Source: Myxococcota bacterium
GTDB taxonomy: Bacteria > Myxococcota > B64-G9
Length of the DNA stretch: 53,546 nt
NCBI GenBank assembly: GCA_022710975.1
Contig: JAKLGA010000009.1
Location: 1-53,546 of the forward strand
Reading direction: 5' to 3'
The notes below the pieces were generated by a model, which was not told the origin of the DNA, ran no database searches, and was given only the letters and a program-made list of their open reading frames with translations. Numbering within the stretch: position 1 is the stretch's first letter; every line of letters starts with the position of its first letter. Made by a program: the position numbers and the translations under genes. Positions 3,089 to 13,422 of the stretch are shown in pieces.

Positions 3089-4312
3089 CTAGAAGGCGTG
3101 GGCGCCGTGGGCGCCCGCGCTGATCTCGAGCTGCAGGAACACCGCGGCGTAGGGCCCGTCCATGCCCGGGGCCCGGCCCAGGTCCGCCTGCAGCCGCAGC
3201 TTGGAGAAGTGGGTGGGCAGGAAGCTGACCGCGGCCGAGCCACGCCAGGCCCAGGTCGCCAGCGCCGTGGTCCCCCAGGCCTCCCCCGGAAGCCGGGCGG
3301 TGTTGTCGGCCCGCAGCGCCACCAGCCAGCGGCGGTCGAGCTGCACGTCGAGCTGGACGTAGCCGCCGTGATCCAGCACGTGGCCCTCGGGGGAGTCGCT
3401 GTCGCGCAGCACGTACTCCAGGGTGAGCCCCACGGCCAGGGCGTCCTCGCCCTCGGACAGGGGCCGCCAGCGCAGGTACAGGTCGAGGCCATAGAGCGCA
3501 GCGCGCGTGTCGGCCAGCTCCACGCTCGGCCCCCAGGCGCCCGAGGCGCCGAGGGCGAGCGACCAGTCATCCCCGCCAGGCACGAAGGACTCGAGGCGGG
3601 TCAGGTAGACGAGCTGCCCCGGATCGCGGAGGTCCTCCCCCTCGGCCACGGCGGCGAAGGAGCTCGAGCGGAAGTCGGTCAGCGCGTGGGTGTCCAGCAC
3701 CTCCACCAGCAGGAGCAGGTACCAGGGCAGGGGCAGGAGCCAGCTCAGCTCGCCGCCCAGGCCGCCGAAGTGCTCCTCGGCCAGGAAACGCGCGTGCATG
3801 AGCGACGGGCTGGCCAGGTGCCAGGTGTGCAGGTGGCGGGGGTTCTCCCGGCCGAAGGCGGCGTTCAGCACGCCCAGCCGGGCTTGCAGGCTCCAGGGCA
3901 GCGCCAGGGTCGTGAGGTAGGCCTCCTCGAGCTCCAGGTGGGCGAGCTGGAAGCTGAGGTCGAAGCGGAAGTAGGGATCCACGGCGGCCGAGGCCACCCA
4001 CTCGAGCCCCTGCAGGGTGAAGCCGTTGTGGTCCGGGGCGTGGCCGCCCAGCCGCAGGTGGTCGTCCTGGGTGAACCAGCCCAGCGCCACGTCCAGGATG
4101 AGGCTCATGTCCAGGCCGAGCGAGGCCAGCAGGCCCACCGGCGCCTGCGGCGCGAGCAGGCTCACGGGCGGAGGAGGTGGACGGGTCGCCCCATCCTCGG
4201 CCTCGGCCGCGGCCAGGTCGGGATCCACCCCCTCGCCGTCCGCCTGTGCCCGGGGCGGCGAGAGCAGCAGGCTCAGGCCAGCCGCCAGCGCCAGCTTTGC
4301 CAGTCGCGGCAT
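3089..4312 (-). CDS. Outer-membrane beta-barrel protein (porin-like), probably co-transcribed with znuACB
   Basis: Signal peptide MPRLAKLALAAGLSLLLSPPRAQA (ATG complement 4310-4312), alternating amphipathic pattern, C-terminal ...GAHAF (aromatic terminal residue typical of OMPs); 17 bp upstream of znuA, 11 bp downstream of regulator gene. N-terminal 66 aa of track ORF are read-through. Confidence 0.6.
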   Translation of the reverse strand: MPRLAKLALAAGLSLLLSPPRAQADGEGVDPDLAAAEAEDGATRPPPPPVSLLAPQAPVGLLASLGLDMSLILDVALGWFTQDDHLRLGGHAPDHNGFTLQGLEWVASAAVDPYFRFDLSFQLAHLELEEAYLTTLALPWSLQARLGVLNAAFGRENPRHLHTWHLASPSLMHARFLAEEHFGGLGGELSWLLPLPWYLLLLVEVLDTHALTDFRSSSFAAVAEGEDLRDPGQLVYLTRLESFVPGGDDWSLALGASGAWGPSVELADTRAALYGLDLYLRWRPLSEGEDALAVGLTLEYVLRDSDSPEGHVLDHGGYVQLDVQLDRRWLVALRADNTARLPGEAWGTTALATWAWRGSAAVSFLPTHFSKLRLQADLGRAPGMDGPYAAVFLQLEISAGAHGAHAF

Positions 4313-4323
4313 GCCGTCCCTCC

Positions 4324-4644
4324 CTAGCCAGCCTTTGCGGTTCGCGCGCGCGCCGGCGCCCGGTGGCGCGCGGCGCGCTCGTGGTGGCCGTCGCACTCGC
4401 ACACCAGGTGCACGGCGTGGCAGGACTCGCACTCCCGCACCGAGTGATCCTCGAGGAAGCCCTTCCAGTGCTCGCGCTGCTCGAGGCTCAGGATGCCGGT
4501 GCCCTTGCACAACGGGCAGGCCCCGTCCAGCGCCGCCAGGATGGCCCCGCGGATGAACTCCGAGCGGTTCTGGACCCCGCGCATGGCCTCGGCCAGCGCC
4601 GCGTCCACCTTGAAGGTGATCATCTCCTGCTTGGGCGAGGGCAT
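4324..4644 (-). CDS. Ribbon-helix-helix (CopG/NikR-like) DNA-binding protein with C-terminal Cys/His-rich metal-binding tail; candidate metal-responsive regulator
   Basis: N-terminus MITFKVDAALAEAMRGVQNRSEFIRGAILAAL is a textbook RHH (beta-strand followed by two helices); C-terminus CPLCKGTG...CESCHAVHLVCECDGHH carries 6 Cys + several His. First gene of the OMP-znuACB string; GGAGG RBS 4 nt upstream of ATG 4644. Confidence 0.6.
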   Translation of the reverse strand: MPSPKQEMITFKVDAALAEAMRGVQNRSEFIRGAILAALDGACPLCKGTGILSLEQREHWKGFLEDHSVRECESCHAVHLVCECDGHHERAARHRAPARARTAKAG

Positions 4645-4731: not shown

Positions 4732-7194
4732 TTAGAGCCCGCGGAAGGCCACGTTGTCGATGCGCCAGGTGCCGGCCGCGCCCTCGGCCAGGTAGCCGTA
4801 GACGCGGACGGTCACGCTGGCCTGGTTGTCCACCAGGGCCGAGAGGTCGAAGACCCAGGAGCGCCAGTTCGCGTCGTCGGGCAGCGGGGTGATCGAGCCG
4901 GGGACCGCCGTGAAGGTCGTGCCGTCCAGGCTGTAGGCCAGGTTGAGCTCCCGGACGCCGGTGTTCGAGCGGCGCTCGTCGAAGGAGAACAGGACCTGGG
5001 TGCGCCCGGTGAGATCCACGGCGAAGGCGAAGTAGTCGGTCACGTCCTCCGGGGTGGCGGTGGTCCAGCCGTCCCGGGTCCAGGAGAATCCCACGCCGCC
5101 GAAGCCCGTGGGGAACTCGCCGCTGCCCGGGACGGTCAGGCCCGCGCCGGCCGTGGCGGTGCCGGCGCCCACCGAGGGCGCCGTGCTGCTGGCCTCGAAG
5201 TCCCAGACCGTGATGTCCACGCGCTGGACGGCGGGCACGCAGGTCGGGGTGCCGCTCGAGGCGTCGCAGGCCTCGCCGGCGTTGCAGGCGGTGGTGGTGA
5301 GCTCGGTGCAGCCGTCGGCGTCGGTGTCGGCGCAGGTCTCGATGGCCAGGAGGTCGGCGGAGCAGGCCGGGAAGTTCGCCGCCACGCAGTCGTCCGCGCA
5401 GCCCGCCAGGCACTCGGCGCTGCCCGCCGCGCCCTGGCAGCTCAGGCCCGCCTCGCACGGGGTCGAGAACAGGTCCGTGCAGCCGTCGCCCTGCATCACG
5501 CAGGTGTCCAGGTTGCCGTTCGCGTTGCAGGCCGGGAACAGCGCCGGGTTGCAGTCGTTCGTGCAGCCGCCGCCAGCGCAGGTGATGAGCTGGACCACGT
5601 CCAGCATGACGCTGCCGCCCGCGCTCACGGTGCCGTGCAGCCGCAGCGTGTGGGCCGCGCCGTCGGCGTAGGCCGACACGTCCACCTCCATCAGGTGCCA
5701 GGTCTCACCGTAGATCGGGTCCTCCACCGCGTACTGCACCACCTGGGTCCCGTCCAGCGTCACCTCGAAGAAGTCGCCGGCCGTGGCCCCGCCCGCGTAC
5801 AGGTAGAACCACAGGGTGGCGATGTTCGCCGCCGGGATGGTCACCGCCTGCTCCACGTAGGCGTCGTCCGCGTCGCCGCCGCCCATCCAGATCCAGTACA
5901 CGCCCTCCACGGCCACGTTCGACTGGCCGCAGCCGGGGTAGGTGCACAGCGGCGTGCCGTAGGCCGAGCTGTACTCCGTCCAGGTGCCCCCGGTCTCGAA
6001 CGAGCCGTCCACGATGGCGTCCGGGCCGCCCGTGCAGTCGCAGCTCGCCTGGTCCTCGGCGCAGGTCTCGTCGGCGCCGCAGCTGCCGCAGCTCCCGCCG
6101 CAGCCGTCGTCGCCGCACACCTTGCCCGCGCAGTCCGGCACGCAGCCCTCGCAGGCCGTGCCGTCCGCGTTGCAGACCTGCGGGAGCACGCAGCCCGGGC
6201 CGCACTCGCCGCCGCAGCCGTCCGGCCCGCACACCTTGCCGGCGCAGTCCGGGGTGCAGGCGATGCACACCGGCGGCACGGCCGTGGCGTCGCAGATCTG
6301 GTTCGCCTCGCAGGGCGTGTTGACCACCGCGTTGCAGGCGTCGGCCACCGCGCTGCACACGTCCAGGGAGAAGCCGTCCGCGCCGCAGGCGGTCTCACCC
6401 AGGGTGCACTGGCCGGTGCAGTCCAGCACGCACGCGGGCGGGTCCAGGGCCGGGTCGCACACGTTCCCGGCGCCGCACGGGGTGGTGATGAGGTCGGTGC
6501 AGCCGTCGATCTGCGTGCTGCAGGTCAGGCGGGCGTTGTTGGCCACGTCGCACTGCGGGTACTCGGCCGCCACGCACTCGTCCTGGCAGTTCTCCGCGCA
6601 GGTCGGCTCGTCGTCCACGACCACGCAGGAGGCGTCCTCGGCCGCGCAGTCCTGCAGATCGATCCAGCCCAGGCAGCCGCTGGCCTCCTGGCCGCAGCCC
6701 TGGATCACGCCGGTCGCGCACCGGCGCGTGCCGGCCGGGCTGCAGGCGTCCGTGCAGGTGGCCGCGCACTGGGCGGCGCCGCTGCCCTCGTCGCACACCT
6801 GGCCGCCGGCCGCGCAGTCCTCGCCGTTCACCCAGGCCAGGCAGCCGGCCGCGCTGGCCTGGCAGGTGCGGATCACGGTGCCGTTGCACTCGGTGCCGCC
6901 GACCGCGCTGCAGGTGTTGCTGCAGCGGCACTGGCCATCGGCCTGGCTGCAGGTCTGGTCCGCGGCGCAGGGCACGCCCGCGCTCCACACCAGGCAGCCG
7001 TCGGCGTTCGGGGCGCACACCTCGGGGTCGGTCGCGCCGCAGCGCTGCAGCCCCGCGCCGGCGCACACGCTCGCCTCGGGCAGGTCCTTGCACTTGTCGG
7101 TCGAGAACTTGTCGCCGCAGCCCGCCGCCGCCAGGCCCAGCGCCAGGCAGGCGGACAGGACACCCAGCACAGCTCGCTTCGAGAAAGCCTTCAT
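4732..7194 (-). CDS. Large secreted cysteine-rich repeat lipoprotein (Myxococcus cysteine-rich repeat type), paralog 1
   Basis: Leader MKAFSKRAVLGVLSACLALGLAAAGC (lipobox); many repeats of the form C...DGC..W....C; conserved ~160-aa C-terminal domain (WTRDGW...RRSNTG...TWRIDNVAFRGL) shared with paralog 2. N-terminal 14 aa of track ORF are upstream read-through. Confidence 0.8.
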   Translation of the reverse strand: MKAFSKRAVLGVLSACLALGLAAAGCGDKFSTDKCKDLPEASVCAGAGLQRCGATDPEVCAPNADGCLVWSAGVPCAADQTCSQADGQCRCSNTCSAVGGTECNGTVIRTCQASAAGCLAWVNGEDCAAGGQVCDEGSGAAQCAATCTDACSPAGTRRCATGVIQGCGQEASGCLGWIDLQDCAAEDASCVVVDDEPTCAENCQDECVAAEYPQCDVANNARLTCSTQIDGCTDLITTPCGAGNVCDPALDPPACVLDCTGQCTLGETACGADGFSLDVCSAVADACNAVVNTPCEANQICDATAVPPVCIACTPDCAGKVCGPDGCGGECGPGCVLPQVCNADGTACEGCVPDCAGKVCGDDGCGGSCGSCGADETCAEDQASCDCTGGPDAIVDGSFETGGTWTEYSSAYGTPLCTYPGCGQSNVAVEGVYWIWMGGGDADDAYVEQAVTIPAANIATLWFYLYAGGATAGDFFEVTLDGTQVVQYAVEDPIYGETWHLMEVDVSAYADGAAHTLRLHGTVSAGGSVMLDVVQLITCAGGGCTNDCNPALFPACNANGNLDTCVMQGDGCTDLFSTPCEAGLSCQGAAGSAECLAGCADDCVAANFPACSADLLAIETCADTDADGCTELTTTACNAGEACDASSGTPTCVPAVQRVDITVWDFEASSTAPSVGAGTATAGAGLTVPGSGEFPTGFGGVGFSWTRDGWTTATPEDVTDYFAFAVDLTGRTQVLFSFDERRSNTGVRELNLAYSLDGTTFTAVPGSITPLPDDANWRSWVFDLSALVDNQASVTVRVYGYLAEGAAGTWRIDNVAFRGL

Positions 7195-7243
7195 GACTCC
7201 ACCCTCCGGGATTGGTTGCGGCGCAGTATAGCCCAAGATCCGG

Positions 7244-7280
7244 AAACGAAAAAGCCCGCCCCCGGGATCCGGGGGCGGGC
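7244..7280 (-). terminator. Rho-independent terminator-like hairpin between the two paralogs
   Basis: Perfect inverted repeat gcccgccccc-gggatcc-gggggcgggc (7254-7280) followed on the minus strand by TTTTTCGTTTCC; lies 25 nt downstream of paralog-2 stop. Confidence 0.5.
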
Positions 7281-7304
7281 CATGGGGTCAGGTCAGAGCA
7301 GGGC

Positions 7305-10300
7305 TCAGAACGAGCGGAAGGTCACGTTGTCGATGCGCCAGGTGCCCGTAGGTCCACTTGCGCCGTAGCCGTGGATGCGGAGGGTCACGTTGGCCTGATT
7401 GTCCAGGAGGGCTGACAGGTCGAAGGTGCTCGAACCCCAGGCGCCGCCAGCTGCCGTGGCGGTGACCGAGCCGGGGACCTGCGCGAAGTCCGTCCCGTTG
7501 ATGCTGTAGTACAGCTCGAAGGTCGTCGGGCCCGTGTTCGACCGGCGATGGTCGAAGGTGAAGAGCACGGAGGTCGCGCCGGTCAAGTCAGTCGAGAACT
7601 GGAAGTAGCGGGTCGCATCGAACGCCACGACGTTCCAGTCCACGAGGCTCCACGACGCCACGCTACCGTTGCCGGCCGGGAAGGTGGCCGCGGTCACGTT
7701 GCCAGCGCCAGCTACGGCCGCGCCGGTACCGATGTTCGGCACGAGCTGGTCGGGGGCGGCCGCCTCGAAGTTCCACTGGGTCACAGGGGCCCGGACGGTG
7801 GCGGTGACCGTCAGGTTCCAGGTCCCGCGGCTCGTGATCGAGTAGGGTTCGGAGACCACGAAGTAGGTGCCGGCCGGCAGGCGGCGGGCGATCACGGAGT
7901 AGGCCCCGGTGCCGTCGTCGTCGTCGCATTCGAGCTCGGTGCCGCCGCAGCCGTCGAACAGCGCCAGGACCGTGTCGGTCACCGTGCCCGGGCCCGAGGT
8001 CTCGATGACCACGTCGGCGTCCTCGGTCAGGGTGAATGTCTGCCACACGTCATAGCCGGTCCGGCTGCCGGAGCAGCTGTAGGCGCTGAAGTCGTCGACG
8101 GCGTTCGTGTTGTTGACCACGGTGGTGGCCGTGCCGGTCGTGAGGTCGAGCACCTGGGCGGTGGCGCAGGTGTCCGGAGTCAGACAGCCGAAGACGCCGC
8201 CGCCGAGGTCGCCGCAGCCGACGGGGCACACGGTCTCGACCCAGGCGGTGCCGATGGCGTTGCAGGTCTCGAGGTTGTTCCCGACGTTGCACTGGGTGGT
8301 CCCGGCCGGGCAGATGACCGGCGCGGCGGTGACGGTCAGGGTCCAGTCGCCGAGATCGAGGAGGGTGTAGGGATCCATGACCAGGTAGTAGGTGCCCGCG
8401 GTCAAGCCGATGTTGATCAGGGAGTAGAAGTCGGCCCCGCTGTCGTCGTCGCAGGCGACCTCGGCTCCGCCGCAGGCGCTGAACAGCGCCATGACCGTGT
8501 CGTCGATCAGGCCGGGCGCCGAGGTCTCGATGGTCACGCCCGCGTCCGCCGCGAGGGTGAAGCTGTACCACACGTCGGCGCCGGTCTGGCCGGGGTTGCA
8601 GCTGTACTCCGAGAAGGAGTCGGAGAACAGGGTGTTGTCCACCACCACGCTGGCGCTGCCCGAGCTGACGTCGAGGAAGATCGGGTCGGCGCAGGTGTCG
8701 CCTTGGAGGACCTGGACCACGCAGGTGGGCGCGCCCGCCACCAGCTCGCAGGCCTCGTTCGCGCCGCAGGCGGTGCTGGCGAGCTCGGTGCAGCCGTCGG
8801 CGTCGGTGTCGGCGCAGGTCTCGATGGCCAGGAAGTCGGCGGAGCAGGCCGGGAAGTTGGCCGCCACGCACTCGTCCACGCAGCCGACCACGCAGGTGGG
8901 CACGCCGGCCACCAGCTCGCAGGTCTCGCCGGCGTTGCAGGCGGTGCTGGCGAGCTCGGTGCAGCCGTCGGCGTCGGTGTCGGCGCAGGTCTCGATGGCC
9001 AGGAAGTCGGCGGAGCAGGCCGGGAAGTTCGCCGCCACGCAGTCGTCCGCGCAGCCGACCACGCAGGTGGGCACGCCGGCCACCAGCTCGCAGGCCTCGC
9101 CGGCGTTGCAGGCGGTGGTGGTGAGCTCGGTGCAGCCGTCGGCGTCGGTGTCGGCGCAGGTCTCGATGGCCAGGAGGTCGGCGGCGCAGGCCGGGAAGTT
9201 CGCCGCCACGCAGTCGTCCGCGCAGCCCGCCAGGCACTCGGCGCTGCCCGCCGCGCCCTGGCAGCTCAGGCCCGCCTCGCACGGGGTCGAGAACAGGTCC
9301 GTGCAGCCGTCGCCCTGCATCACGCAGGTGTCCAGGTTGCCGTTCGCGTTGCAGGCCGGGAACAGCGCCGGGTTGCAGTCGTTCGTGCAGCCGCCGCCAG
9401 CGCAGGTGATGAGCTGGACCACGTCCAGCATGACGCTGCCGCCCGCGCTCACGGTGCCGTGCAGCCGCAGCGTGTGGGCCGCGCCGTCGGCGTAGGCCGA
9501 CACGTCCACCTCCATCAGGTGCCAGGTCTCACCGTAGATCGGGTCCTCCACCGCGTACTGCACCACCTGGGTCCCGTCCAGCGTCACCTCGAAGAAGTCG
9601 CCGGCCGTGGCCCCGCCCGCGTACAGGTAGAACCACAGGGTGGCGATGTTCGCCGCCGGGATGGTCACCGCCTGCTCCACGTAGGCGTCGTCCGCGTCGC
9701 CGCCGCCCATCCAGATCCAGTACACGCCCTCCACGGCCACGTTCGACTGGCCGCAGCCGGGGTAGGTGCACAGCGGCGTGCCGTAGGCCGAGCTGTACTC
9801 CGTCCAGGTGCCCCCGGTCTCGAACGAGCCGTCCACGATGGCGTCCGGGCCGCCCGTGCAGTCGCAGCTCGCCTGGTCCTCGGCGCAGGTCTCGTCGGCG
9901 CCGCAGCTGCCGCAGCTCCCGCCGCAGCCGTCGTCGCCGCACACCTTGCCCGCGCAGTCCGGCACGCAGCCCTCGCAGGCCGTGCCGTCCGCGTTGCAGA
10001 CCTGCGGGAGCACGCAGCCCGGGCCGCACTCGCCGCCGCAGCCGTCCGGCCCGCACACCTTGCCGGCGCAGTCCGGGGTGCAGGCGATGCACACCGGCGG
10101 CACGGCCGTGGCGTCGCAGATCTGGTTCGCCTCGCAGGGCGTGTTGACCACCGCGTTGCAGGCGTCGGCCACCGCGCTGCACACGTCCAGGGAGAAGCCG
10201 TCCGCGCCGCAGGCGGTCTCACCCAGGGTGCACTGGCCGGTGCAGTCCAGCACGCACGCGGGCGGGTCCAGGGCCGGGTCGCACACGTTCCCGGCGCCGC

Positions 10301-11018
10301 ACGGGGTGGTGATGAGGTCGGTGCAGCCGTCGATCTGCGTGCTGCAGGTCAGGCGGGCGTTGTTGGCCACGTCGCACTGCGGGTACTCGGCCGCCACGCA
10401 CTCGTCCTGGCAGTTCTCCGCGCAGGTCGGCTCGTCGTCCACGACCACGCAGGAGGCGTCCTCGGCCGCGCAGTCCTGCAGATCGATCCAGCCCAGGCAG
10501 CCGCTGGCCTCCTGGCCGCAGCCCTGGATCACGCCGGTCGCGCACCGGCGCGTGCCGGCCGGGCTGCAGGCGTCCGTGCAGGTGGCCGCGCACTGGGCGG
10601 CGCCGCTGCCCTCGTCGCACACCTGGCCGCCGGCCGCGCAGTCCTCGCCGTTCACCCAGGCCAGGCAGCCGCCCGCGTCGGCCGTGCAGGTGCGGATCAC
10701 GGTGCCGTTGCACTCGGTGCCGCCGACCGCGCTGCAGGTGTTGCTGCAGCGGCACTGGCCGTCGGCCTCGCTGCAGGTCTGGCCCGCGGCGCAGGGCACG
10801 CCCGCGCTCCACACCAGGCAGCCGTCGGCGTTCGGGGCGCACACCTCGGGGCTGGTCGCGCCACAGCGCTGCAGCCCCGCGCCGGCGCACACGCTCGCCT
10901 CGGGCAGGTCCTTGCACTTGTCGGTCGAGAACTTGTCGCCGCAGCCCGCCGCCGCCAGGCCAAGTGCCAGGCAAGCGGCCAGGACTCCGAACACGGCCCG
11001 CTTCGAATTCATGTTCAT
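7305..11018 (-). CDS. Very large secreted cysteine-rich repeat lipoprotein, paralog 2 (adds 3 x 57-aa Cys modules, two PPC-like beta-sandwich domains and the shared C-terminal domain)
   Basis: Leader MNMNSKRAVFGVLAACLALGLAAAGC; first ~640 aa are near-identical to paralog 1 (exact 3824-bp offset in ORF track); two domains with pre-peptidase-C-terminal-like pattern (..YSFTL..DA.V.IETS......DTV.ALF..CGG.E..CDDD.G.......L.AGTYY.V..PY......G.W.LTVTA). Confidence 0.8.
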   Translation of the reverse strand: MNMNSKRAVFGVLAACLALGLAAAGCGDKFSTDKCKDLPEASVCAGAGLQRCGATSPEVCAPNADGCLVWSAGVPCAAGQTCSEADGQCRCSNTCSAVGGTECNGTVIRTCTADAGGCLAWVNGEDCAAGGQVCDEGSGAAQCAATCTDACSPAGTRRCATGVIQGCGQEASGCLGWIDLQDCAAEDASCVVVDDEPTCAENCQDECVAAEYPQCDVANNARLTCSTQIDGCTDLITTPCGAGNVCDPALDPPACVLDCTGQCTLGETACGADGFSLDVCSAVADACNAVVNTPCEANQICDATAVPPVCIACTPDCAGKVCGPDGCGGECGPGCVLPQVCNADGTACEGCVPDCAGKVCGDDGCGGSCGSCGADETCAEDQASCDCTGGPDAIVDGSFETGGTWTEYSSAYGTPLCTYPGCGQSNVAVEGVYWIWMGGGDADDAYVEQAVTIPAANIATLWFYLYAGGATAGDFFEVTLDGTQVVQYAVEDPIYGETWHLMEVDVSAYADGAAHTLRLHGTVSAGGSVMLDVVQLITCAGGGCTNDCNPALFPACNANGNLDTCVMQGDGCTDLFSTPCEAGLSCQGAAGSAECLAGCADDCVAANFPACAADLLAIETCADTDADGCTELTTTACNAGEACELVAGVPTCVVGCADDCVAANFPACSADFLAIETCADTDADGCTELASTACNAGETCELVAGVPTCVVGCVDECVAANFPACSADFLAIETCADTDADGCTELASTACGANEACELVAGAPTCVVQVLQGDTCADPIFLDVSSGSASVVVDNTLFSDSFSEYSCNPGQTGADVWYSFTLAADAGVTIETSAPGLIDDTVMALFSACGGAEVACDDDSGADFYSLINIGLTAGTYYLVMDPYTLLDLGDWTLTVTAAPVICPAGTTQCNVGNNLETCNAIGTAWVETVCPVGCGDLGGGVFGCLTPDTCATAQVLDLTTGTATTVVNNTNAVDDFSAYSCSGSRTGYDVWQTFTLTEDADVVIETSGPGTVTDTVLALFDGCGGTELECDDDDGTGAYSVIARRLPAGTYFVVSEPYSITSRGTWNLTVTATVRAPVTQWNFEAAAPDQLVPNIGTGAAVAGAGNVTAATFPAGNGSVASWSLVDWNVVAFDATRYFQFSTDLTGATSVLFTFDHRRSNTGPTTFELYYSINGTDFAQVPGSVTATAAGGAWGSSTFDLSALLDNQANVTLRIHGYGASGPTGTWRIDNVTFRSF
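8719..9231. repeat. Three tandem 171-bp coding repeats (57-aa module GCADDCVAANFPACSADFLAIETCADTDADGCTELASTACNAGETCELVAGVPTCVV)
   Basis: Unit starts at 8719, 8890, 9061 (acgcaggtggg...), units near-identical at DNA level; inside paralog 2; paralog 1 has a single copy. Confidence 0.85.
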
Positions 11019-11178: not shown

Positions 11179-12678
11179 TCAGTATCGTCCGTACAGGTCT
11201 CCCTGGGGGGCGCGGCGCTCCATCAGCTCGGCCACTGCCCGGCCGAGCTCCACCTCGGGCTCCAGGGCGGGATCGGCCAGCGCCTCGGCGTCCTCGGCGA
11301 TGCGCCGGGCGGCCAGCCGGGCCAGCTCGGCCGCGCCGGCCGGGTCCTGCGGGTAGAGCTCGGCCGCGCGCCGGAGCCCGGACACCAGGATGGCCAGGGC
11401 CACGGCCTTCTCCACGCCGGGTTGCTCGAAGGCCATCCCGCGCTCGTCAGGCGCCATGGCCGGGTAGCCTTGCTCGACCGTCTGGGTGATCCGCTCGCCC
11501 GCCGGGGTCAGGTAGCCGAGCTCCCCGTGCACCCGGAGGTCGGCCCAGCGCGCGCCCTCCTCCGCGCCCAGGCGCACCAGCAGCGCGCCCTTGCGGCGGC
11601 TGAGGAAGACGGTGGCGGCCTGCAGGCCGAACTCGCCGTCCGGCTCGCCGGGGAAGCCGTAGGCCTCCTTCGCCCGGAACCCCTCGCTGGCCACCAGGTT
11701 CAGGCGCAGGTCGTAGGCGATGGGGCTGGCCAGCCAGGGCCAGGAGTCGCCCAGCAGCCGATCGGGATCCTCGCGCCCGAACAGGCTGAAGGCGTTGCCG
11801 CCGCGGAGCTGCACCAGCGCCTCCAGCACCTCGGCGCCCAGACCCACCCCCAGGGCGAACACGCTCAGCCCGACCCCCTGGTCCGCGCCGTCGGCCGCCA
11901 TGGCCTGGAACTCGCTGGGGCTGGTGGCGCCCACGTTGGGCTGCACGTCGGTGAACAGCATCACCCGCACCTCCTGGGTGCCCCCCTCGGCGCGGGCCTG
12001 GCGCGCCAGCTCGAAGGCCCGTCGCAGGCCGGCCTCCATGTTGGTGCTGCCGTCGGTGCCCAGCCCCGCGATGGCCGCGTCCACCCGCTCCCGGTCCTCG
12101 GCCGGTGTCCAGCCGAGCCGGGTGCTCACGTCAGTGCCGTAGGCGACGATGGCGATGCGATCGCCCGCCCCGAGCCGTCCGGCGATGCGGGTGAGCAGCA
12201 TGCGGGCCAGACAACCCGGGGTCGGGTACTCGGCCTCCTCGCTGGAGTAATCCCAGCCCATCGAACCGGACACGTCCACCACGGCCACCACGGCGAGCGA
12301 GGGCCGCACGAAGGTGTCCGGATCGATGAGCGAGGACATGCCCACCTGGAGCCAGGCGGCCGGTTCGCCCGCCAGCGTCGGGGCGGCCCCGGAGGCCGTG
12401 CGCAGGCACAGCAGGTTCTGGCAGGGGGCGCCGGTGAGCGGCAGGTCGTGCTCGGAGAACATGCCCTCGACCAGGAAGGCATCGGGAGGCGGGACCTGGC
12501 CGTTCTCCACCAGCTCCCGGGCGAACTGCATGTCCTGCACTCCGCCCTGGGTGGCACCGAACTCGCCGCCCCCCCCGCCCATGCCCGCGTCCGCGAGGCC
12601 ACAGCCGGCCGCACCCAGCATCCACAGGGCCAGCGCCCAGACCGCCCACCCTGACATCTCGATCCGGTTTCGTCCCAT
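11179..12678 (-). CDS. von Willebrand factor type A (VWA) domain lipoprotein
   Basis: Leader ...[14 protein letters not shown] (lipobox); MIDAS motif DVSGSM, downstream GTDGSTN.....G; strong AAGGAG RBS 7 nt before ATG (complement 12676-12678). Confidence 0.8.
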
Positions 12679-12831
12679 GGAATCGCTCCTTGGCTTGGTT
12701 TGACCGGATGCGAAGCAACGTGTGTGCCATGGGCCACAGTTGTTTATTTGCGTGGAGTTGAGATTAACCCAGCCCCCGCTGGCGCGGGATGGACCGGGGG
12801 GAGACCGCGATCCGAGTGCCCTGGTTTCAGA

Positions 12832-13422
12832 TCACGGGACCTGGATGTCGAATCGGGCCAGGAGGTCGACCACCCGCGTCAGCGGCAAGCCGATGATGCC
12901 GGTGAAGTCCTCGCCCTGCATGCGCTCGAACAGCGCGATGCCCGGGCCCTCGACCCTGTAGGAGCCTGCGCAGTCGAAGGGCCGGTCCAGGGCCACGTAG
13001 GCGCGCAGGCGCTCCTCCGCGAGCGGCCGCATGCTCATGCGCTGGACGTCGAGGGCCTGCTCGAGCCGTCCGCTGCGGGCCTCCAGCAGGCACACCCCGG
13101 TCAGCAGCCGGTGCGTGCGGCCGGCGAGCAGCCGCAGCTGCTCCACGGCCCGGGCCTCGTCGCCCGGCTTGGTCAGCACCCGGCCGTCCAGCTCGGCGAC
13201 CTGGTCGGCGGCCAGCAGCAGGGCGTCCGGGAACAGCGGCGCGAGCGAGCGGGCCTTCCCGCGGGCCAGGTGCAGCACCAGCTCCTCGGGCGGCAGCGGC
13301 AGGTCGTGCTGCTCCTGGTAGGGCGGCCGGGCTGCCTCGAAGGGCAGGCCCAGGCGCTCGAGCAGCGCGCTGCGGTAACGCGAGGTGGAGGCCAGGACGA
13401 GCTTGCGGAGGGGTGCGTCCAT
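12832..13422 (-). CDS. maf: Maf-like nucleoside triphosphate pyrophosphatase (septum formation protein Maf family)
   Basis: MDAPLRKLVLASTSRYRSALLERLGLPF...; Maf signature LILAS-like start, length ~196 aa; upstream 15 codons of track ORF lack RBS. Confidence 0.75.
   Translation of the reverse strand: MDAPLRKLVLASTSRYRSALLERLGLPFEAARPPYQEQHDLPLPPEELVLHLARGKARSLAPLFPDALLLAADQVAELDGRVLTKPGDEARAVEQLRLLAGRTHRLLTGVCLLEARSGRLEQALDVQRMSMRPLAEERLRAYVALDRPFDCAGSYRVEGPGIALFERMQGEDFTGIIGLPLTRVVDLLARFDIQVP

Follow-up and report, generated by a model that had tools for sequence, protein, structure and literature searches.

How can two neighbouring genes be almost identical over a long stretch, while their beginnings and ends have clearly drifted apart? 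This question is raised by two adjacent cysteine-rich lipoprotein genes, called g1 and g2 here, which lie in the first 53.5 kb of the 319-kb Joint Genome Institute (JGI) metagenome contig 3300025706 Ga0209507_1000032 from a Myxococcota bacterium. We refer to this whole stretch of 53,546 nucleotides (nt), which has a G+C content of 72.8%, as the window. Both genes are on the minus strand, g1 at 4732-7194 (820 amino acids (aa), 78 Cys) and g2 at 7305-11018 (1237 aa, 108 Cys). An earlier note, made from the sequence alone, had explained the pair as a recent tandem duplication by unequal crossover with an exact period of 3824 bp, and not as ancient paralogy. We think it likely that g1 and g2 are instead ancient tandem paralogs which have been homogenised by recent gene conversion.

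The observation that started the question holds. When the window is compared with itself at an offset of 3824, positions 5264-7182 in g1 align without a gap to 9088-11006 in g2, with 21 mismatches in 1919 bp. In both genes the repeat covers codons 5-643, and identity is at background level both below 5264 and above 7182. The three pairs of open reading frames (ORFs) that had drawn attention to the offset (5705/9529, 5841/9665 and 5984/9808) are present and are other-frame ORFs within the two real minus-strand genes; the quoted leader peptides also read as they were given. Elsewhere in the 53.5 kb, 25-mers recur only in a trivial pair spaced by 18 bp (19129/19147), so that the repeat, being the sole long one, is not a product of chance. 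The offset is exact, but it is not the length of a unit repeated head to tail. It is the spacing of two 1919-bp copies around 1905 bp of unique sequence (7183-9087), as the offset comparison shows. Read along the minus strand, this spacer runs from the 3' part of g2 through a terminator-like hairpin and the upstream region of g1 to the first g1 codons. The edge of the repeat at 9088 falls inside a 57-aa Cys module, 31 nt ahead of the module end, in agreement with the earlier placement of this boundary.

The mismatches are unevenly distributed within the repeat. The 335 bp at 6848-7182 (partner 10672-11006) are about 94% identical and hold 20 of the 21 mismatches, a clustering with a binomial P of 1.2e-14. 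The remaining 1584 bp at 5264-6847 (partner 9088-10671), which we interpret as the youngest conversion tract, contain a single mismatch at position 5361, causing S612A; none of the about 378 synonymous sites differs. The longest mismatch-free run is 1486 bp (5362-6847) and was matched in none of 200,000 permutations. Counted by codon, 16 codons differ among codons 7-116, of which 8 are purely synonymous, and only one differs among codons 117-643.

Nei-Gojobori estimates of synonymous (dS) and nonsynonymous (dN) divergence by segment describe the same mosaic. The leader (codons 5-26) has a dS of 0.43 and a dN of 0.046, codons 27-116 have a dS of 0.03 and a dN of 0.045, and codons 117-643 have a dS of 0 and a dN of 0.001. 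Divergence resumes at codon 644, and the C-terminal domains of the two proteins, which are about 72% identical in nucleotides and 50-52% in amino acids, differ by a dS of 0.65 and a dN of 0.44. At least three ages are thus visible in the synonymous sites along the gene pair. A single duplication gives one age per unit, and protein selection cannot explain the ages because the differences show at synonymous sites. Homology also extends, at low identity, beyond both edges of the tract, which means that g1 was homologous to g2 even before the event took place; past the edge at codon 643, for instance, the final 29 nt of the Cys module agree at 16 positions and the C..PTCV frame is kept. The event that the earlier note called recent is therefore very recent for the homogenisation of the 5' block, but the paralogy is ancient, as the flank dS values of 0.43 and 0.65 demonstrate.

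The edge of the perfect tract has a peculiarity of its own. At 6848-6861 (codons 112-116) there are 5 nucleotide differences in 14 nt, all of them nonsynonymous (Q112T, S114D, A116G), and codons 27-116 as a whole carry 9 nonsynonymous and 2 synonymous changes, giving a dN/dS of about 1.4 from small numbers. Either a short patch of older sequence or diversifying selection close to the lipid anchor could explain this.

For a view from outside the window lineage (W) we used two comparator lineages, both uncultured: relative A on contig L004 (JGI 3300037043) and relative B on contig L007. Two further contigs from other samples, L008 and L009, are nearly identical to the window. The tree obtained from the flanking proteins is (W,(A,B)), with 81-82% identity between A and B and 62-70% between W and either of them. 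At the syntenic locus W has two paralogs (1237 and 820 aa), with Maf and VWA genes upstream and genes for a 106-aa protein, a 407-aa protein and ZnuA downstream. Relative A has three paralogs (1303, 1225 and 830 aa), followed by 105-aa, 411-aa and ZnuA genes, and relative B has one (1261 aa), with a VWA gene before it and 103-aa, 414-aa and ZnuA genes after it. As the copies number two, three and one on this tree, the number of paralogs has changed repeatedly. The suspected copy-number variation is thus supported at the level of genes (one, two or three at the syntenic locus), and the assemblies of near-identical strains hold one to three of the 171-bp modules described below.

Identity within and between genomes depends on which part of the protein is compared. 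Across aa 117-542, the W pair is 100% identical and so is the pair A_1225/A_830, whereas identity between genomes is 38-60%. The C-terminal domain of g2 is 62% identical to that of A_1225 in the other genome and just 52% identical to that of g1. The value between g1 and g2 equals the divergence of the old paralogs A_1225 and A_1303 (53%), from which it follows that the 3' ends of g1 and g2 separated before the lineages split. Paralogs of one genome therefore exceed the identity between genomes inside the tract only, and the tract is far less diverged than its homologous flanks. Such a distribution is what gene conversion leaves behind. With a divergence that is heterogeneous at P of about 1e-14 and a C-terminal identity below the 62% found across genomes, the claim of an unequal-crossover duplication without ancient paralogy is not supported.

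Relative A provides a parallel case. The last two of its three tandem paralogs, A_1225 and A_830 (L004:13913-20550), carry a perfect common run of 1623 bp, with flanks of 66-75% identity on the 5' side and of 98, 90, 92, 81 and finally 46% on the 3' side; their leaders and 3' ends are diverged. This run covers the equivalent protein region, and the same pattern has thus arisen independently in a genome whose lipoproteins are only about 45-50% identical to those of the window. These observations fit conversion that is both recent and recurrent in the family. Other segments group differently again: in the central domain A_1303 goes with B_1261 (71%), in GBD1, the first of the two galactose-binding-like domains, g2 goes with A_1225, and in GBD2 g2, A_1303 and A_1225 fall together. 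This mosaic of sequence affinities points to long-running segmental exchange within the family.

We suggest that, in a recent non-reciprocal homologous recombination event, about 1.6 kb of one gene (codons 117-643) was overwritten from its neighbour. The pathway would presumably be RecA-dependent and act between sister chromosomes or within one chromosome; we infer both this pathway and the direction of transfer. An earlier event probably extended further in the 5' direction, to about codon 27. The edges of the young tract would lie within the repeated 57-aa Cys module on one side and near codon 116 on the other, and the leaders, upstream regions and C-terminal domains would have escaped conversion and retained their old divergence. 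The outcome would be two proteins with the same lipid-anchored Cys-rich stalk and central domain, but with different C-terminal jelly-roll domains of a binding type. The long direct repeats could also undergo unequal crossover, leading either to a 3824-bp deletion, after which the g1 head would follow the g2 leader and the stalk in a hybrid gene, or to an added copy. As direct repeats are substrates for unequal crossover, this would account for the variation in paralog and module number among the relatives.

Several other explanations have to be weighed against this one. A recent tandem duplication by unequal crossover, which would have doubled a segment with the 5' 1.9 kb of one gene and in which the differing 3' ends would mark the duplication junction, could explain the exact constant offset and the near-zero divergence across 1.58 kb; it has one edge within a repeated 171-bp module able to mediate exchange, and the number of paralogs varies among the relatives. 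A simple tandem duplication should leave the whole unit head to tail with uniformly low divergence, though, and here only 1919 of the 3824 bp are repeated and the divergence is heterogeneous even within the repeat. Both flanks are homologous but old, the C-terminal domain of g2 is nearer to that of another genome than to that of g1, and homologous flanks that differ on both the 5' and the 3' side cannot result from a single crossover. We therefore regard this duplication as improbable. Purifying selection on an old duplicate pair, acting alone and without recombination, would be suggested by the nature of the shared region, which encodes a Cys-rich scaffold in which many Cys and Gly positions are invariant. 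Such selection does not remove synonymous differences, and it would have to account for 0 of about 378 next to a flank dS of 0.43-0.65; with 38-60% identity between genomes the region is also not unusually constrained, and we find this explanation hardly conceivable. An extension of gene conversion is that the identical block is actively maintained, by frequent conversion together with selection for a pair with one stalk and alternative heads. W and A, at about 45-50% identity, each have a long and a short gene with an identical stalk part of about 1.5-1.6 kb and distinct leaders and heads. We consider active maintenance rather doubtful; if it were true, a possible reason would be a shared partner or lattice into which both products have to fit, and the direct repeats would double as a recombination switch, with deletion giving a hybrid and duplication a third copy. 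A diversity-generating retroelement was also considered and rejected: the mismatches are not adenine-specific, and there is no reverse transcriptase among the called neighbours, although no dedicated search was run.

An assembly artefact has to be considered as well. All the data are metagenome assemblies, apparently from short reads (judging from the name of L008, k141_; the others were unchecked), and a de Bruijn assembler can thread one collapsed repeat node twice and thus create identical copies. In that case the genome would contain the block once, or twice in clearly diverged form, and a collapsed repeat would have been duplicated or mis-threaded. The contigs of other assemblies do end at the repeat edges, as expected from the assembly hazard that the earlier note had pointed out, and the module counts are one, two or three. 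On the other hand, all four junctions (g2 upstream to repeat, repeat to g2 3' end, g2 3' end to g1 leader, and repeat to g1 3' end) are seen in other assemblies, and L008 and L009 both join g2 to the intergenic region and the g1-specific leader. Two entries to the block and two exits from it must therefore exist. Two partial g1 copies, P0125 and P0126, attributed by NCBI to Myxococcota metagenome-assembled genomes (MAGs), lead from start points 7-17 codons into the repeat to the 3' end specific to g1, in keeping with the expected branching of a de Bruijn graph. In relative A, contigs from two other samples break off after about 115-130 nt of the identical run, in the second or third paralog. 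The copies were also told apart where reads permit, in the g1-specific 94% zone and at mismatch 5361; a second lineage has the same structure in several samples; and an interior divergence above about 1% would not collapse. The two-copy structure is therefore well supported by the assembled sequences, and an artefact on this scale seems very improbable.

Some points nevertheless weigh against gene conversion as we have described it. From every retained mismatch a unique flank is reached across gaps of less than 100 nt, a pattern to be expected from bubble collapse, so that the interior of the repeat may hide a few copy-specific differences. The contrast with the 6% zone and the flanks at about 28% divergence stands all the same, since more than about 1% of interior divergence would have blocked the collapse. 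P0001 and P0002, cluster representatives from another assembly, differ from g2 and g1 of the window, respectively, by D195G and I236V in both paralogs (codons 6610-6612 and 6487-6489 in g1, 10434-10436 and 10311-10313 in g2). This joint switch is compatible with a concerted change and also with an arbitrary bubble resolution or one collapsed consensus used twice. L008 and L009 cross the g2 copy of the repeat unbroken and stop at 7040 and 6934 in the 94% zone of g1, which is unaccounted for if the repeat is exact in those samples; their end points may reflect population heterogeneity in g1. The short paralogs of A and W end in different domains, A_830 having a PPC/GBD-like domain and not one of the g1 type, and an ancestral short copy thus lacks support. 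The replacement of a homologous segment by "partial duplication" is formally inseparable from conversion, and the comparison rests on two comparator lineages. A metagenome-contig scan with g1 and with the exact 41-mer at the repeat edge gave zero matches, did not return even the source contig itself and so added no strain-level contigs. L008 and L009 come from separate samples and were built by different assemblers; their starts (11638 and 11651) lie 13 bp apart in the VWA gene, where there is no repeat.

The 57-aa Cys modules vary in their own right. In g2 they form a tandem array at 8715-9227 (minus strand) of three 171-bp modules (3.0 copies, 95% alike), the first of which contains the repeat edge at 9088. 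L009 has two modules (L009:2425-2766, in a protein of 1180 aa) and L008 has one (L008:2412-2582, 1123 aa), and both contigs are otherwise 99.5-99.8% identical to the window. These differences could be real variation or assembly collapse.

The two genes look like intact coding sequences. Both were called in the same way on the source contig, their translations are complete and the G+C content at third codon positions is 0.96-0.97 (0.97 for g1). Each gene has its own start codon and a Shine-Dalgarno-like sequence, and the upstream regions of the two do not align, as had been noted before. Between the stop of g2 and the start of g1 lies a terminator-like hairpin (7253-7281, minus strand) with a 13-bp stem, 12 G-C pairs and a T-rich tail. 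It is the single match in 7.2 kb, and since shuffled sequences give 1.2 on average, it should be read as a consensus match only. Together, the unalignable upstream regions and the hairpin suggest that g2 and g1 are probably transcribed separately. The phase variation proposed for the locus finds no counterpart here, as no switch feature was found and both genes are complete, with their own starts and dissimilar upstream regions. Among hallmarks of phase or antigenic variation, there are no simple-sequence repeats in the 5' regions and no recombinase among the called neighbours; inverted repeats were not specifically searched. Scans of the window for Rfam families and tRNA genes gave no matches.

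By inspection, both products are lipoproteins with the features of signal peptidase II substrates. The leaders, at 7117-7194 in g1 (MKAFSKRAVLGVLSACLALGLAAAG followed by C) and at 10941-11018 in g2, which is called from MNMNSKRAV, consist of a basic start (MKAFSKR in g1, MNMNSKR in g2), a hydrophobic run and the lipobox LAAAG followed by C. G25 and C26 are invariant in six homologues, and position -3 of the lipobox is Ala, not Leu, Val or Ile. The part common to both proteins (aa 27-654 in g1) comprises a Cys-rich N-block, a central beta-sandwich and 57-aa Cys modules. In g1 the order is leader with lipobox, Cys-rich N-block, central jelly-roll, two 57-aa Cys modules and then directly a C-terminal jelly-roll domain of 166 aa. 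In g2 the shared part is followed by two extra 57-aa modules and then by two GBD/PPC-like domains, which have a Cys spacer, before the protein ends in its C-terminal jelly-roll domain.

The central domain (aa 386-542; 5569-6039, partner 9393-9863, minus strand) lies inside the identical tract, and its model, with a predicted local distance difference test (pLDDT) score of 68, has weak structural matches to CBM61 and MAM-like domains. The C-terminal domain is located at 4735-5232 in g1 (aa 655-820) and at 7308-7802 in g2, both on the minus strand, as judged from sequence comparison and, for g1, also from model comparison. Its model (pLDDT 88) is a jelly-roll that resembles CBM4/CBM22, MAM and the gingipain "cleaved adhesin" domains, with template modelling (TM) scores of about 0.5-0.58. 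PF23759 (GBD_T9SS_assoc, galactose-binding-like) matches two stretches of g2 with 76.6 bits, against a gathering cutoff of 27, and is absent from g1. The choice-of-anchor J model (NF038128) hits g1 only, with 20.2 bits and an E-value of 5e-4, under its curated cutoff of 30. Pfam and NCBIfam gave no match for the Cys-rich N-block, for the central domain or for the C-terminal domain of g1, and a PDB sequence search with g1 gave none either. The models of Cys-rich repeat families of Myxococcus, TIGR04201 (TraA-type) and TIGR02232/DUF4215, were not among the hits of the NCBIfam and Pfam scans at E of 0.01 or below, the presence of these models in the releases being unconfirmed.

The g1 C-terminal domain has few sequence relatives, only the small secreted proteins P0128 and P0129. 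In P0129 it is followed by a T9SS Por_Secre_tail (a precomputed Pfam match), and in P0128 by a PEP-CTERM-like tail, as read by eye. The domain family thus appears to occur with alternative anchors, the one here being an N-terminal lipid anchor. Taken together, g1 and g2 may encode binding proteins with a stalk and a head that are anchored in the envelope or at the surface.

The motif CxPDCxGKxCGxDGCGGxCG (aa 313-390 in g2) is widespread in Myxococcota MAGs (L010-L087), often at several loci per genome. In a protein search it is found fused to agmatine deiminase, lamin-tail, peptidase M43/CAP and FGE-sulfatase domains, and it looks like a common extracellular scaffold module. A contig scan with an alignment of six proteins returned only distant Myxococcota proteins with this module and no orthologous loci. 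Self-BLAST of these 78 loci revealed short module repeats and inter-gene repeats of 304 bp (98%) and 592 bp (89%) in L035 and L080, and no further long identical tracts, although MAG contigs are biased against showing them.

The neighbourhood of the lipoprotein genes is partly conserved. In all three lineages the genes for the 103-106-aa and 407-414-aa proteins lie between the lipoprotein gene or genes and znuA (3089-4644 on the minus strand of the window, L004:20550-22111 and L007:7040-8627), with amino acid identities across lineages of 74-79% and 62-81%, respectively. The 407-aa protein has no match in Pfam or NCBIfam and the 106-aa protein has sub-threshold matches only; both may be functional partners of the lipoproteins. 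Upstream of the array in relative A there is a gene for a 1401-aa Peptidase_C25 (gingipain-family) protein with a BACON domain (L004:5574-9779, minus strand). At this position the Maf and VWA genes are found in the window (11179-13400) and in relative B.

Gene conversion and concerted evolution are known from duplicated bacterial genes such as tufA/tufB, Brucella omp2a/omp2b and Helicobacter babA/babB. In such pairs the exchange is non-reciprocal, divergence is mosaic and the tracts have sharp ends; the genes are usually dispersed or inverted and have equal architecture. The pair studied here resembles tufA/tufB and similar pairs in that part of both paralogs stays identical as the flanks diverge. 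It differs in that g1 and g2 are adjacent direct repeats with different domain sets, which makes deletion or duplication by unequal crossover possible.

The closest described analogue is the lpl family of Staphylococcus aureus, a set of tandem lipoprotein-like genes in which a conserved stretch of each ORF is a site of homologous recombination (Tsuru & Kobayashi 2008, PMC2568036). The 5' and 3' regions of these genes are variable, the unit of change consists of a 3' region, the intergenic sequence and the 5' region of the next gene, and the copy number varies (PMC2568036). The spacer at 7183-9087 is exactly such a unit of 3'-variable, intergenic and 5'-variable sequence. There are differences as well. 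The lpl genes belong to another phylum and another protein family, and a sequence relation is not expected; the conserved stretch of g1 and g2 is far longer (1.6-1.9 kb) and essentially identical; there are only two or three genes; and the evidence for lpl comes from many complete genomes, whereas ours comes from metagenome contigs. Within the phylum, TraA of Myxococcus xanthus combines a Cys-rich repeat region, proposed to be a rigid stalk, with a lectin-like beta-sandwich head of a binding type (PMC3325183). Like TraA, g1 and g2 would encode Myxococcota envelope proteins with a long Cys-rich region and a binding-type domain, their jelly-rolls being predictions. Unlike TraA, which has an N-terminal PA14 head and a C-terminal MYXO-CTERM, they have an N-terminal lipobox anchor, C-terminal heads and no PA14.

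For annotation and binning, the locus illustrates how a real intragenomic repeat of 1.9 kb can break or distort short-read assemblies. The exact identity, the module number and perhaps also the paralog number should not be trusted here without long reads. A more general caution is that an identical block need not mean a recent duplication. The process that we propose for g1 and g2 is a known and ordinary one in a new lineage, and no new mechanism is needed, but the example is well delimited. Uncultured Myxococcota would thereby provide a clear case in which a tandem family of surface lipoproteins evolves in concert, the stalk being homogenised while the heads diverge and are shuffled.

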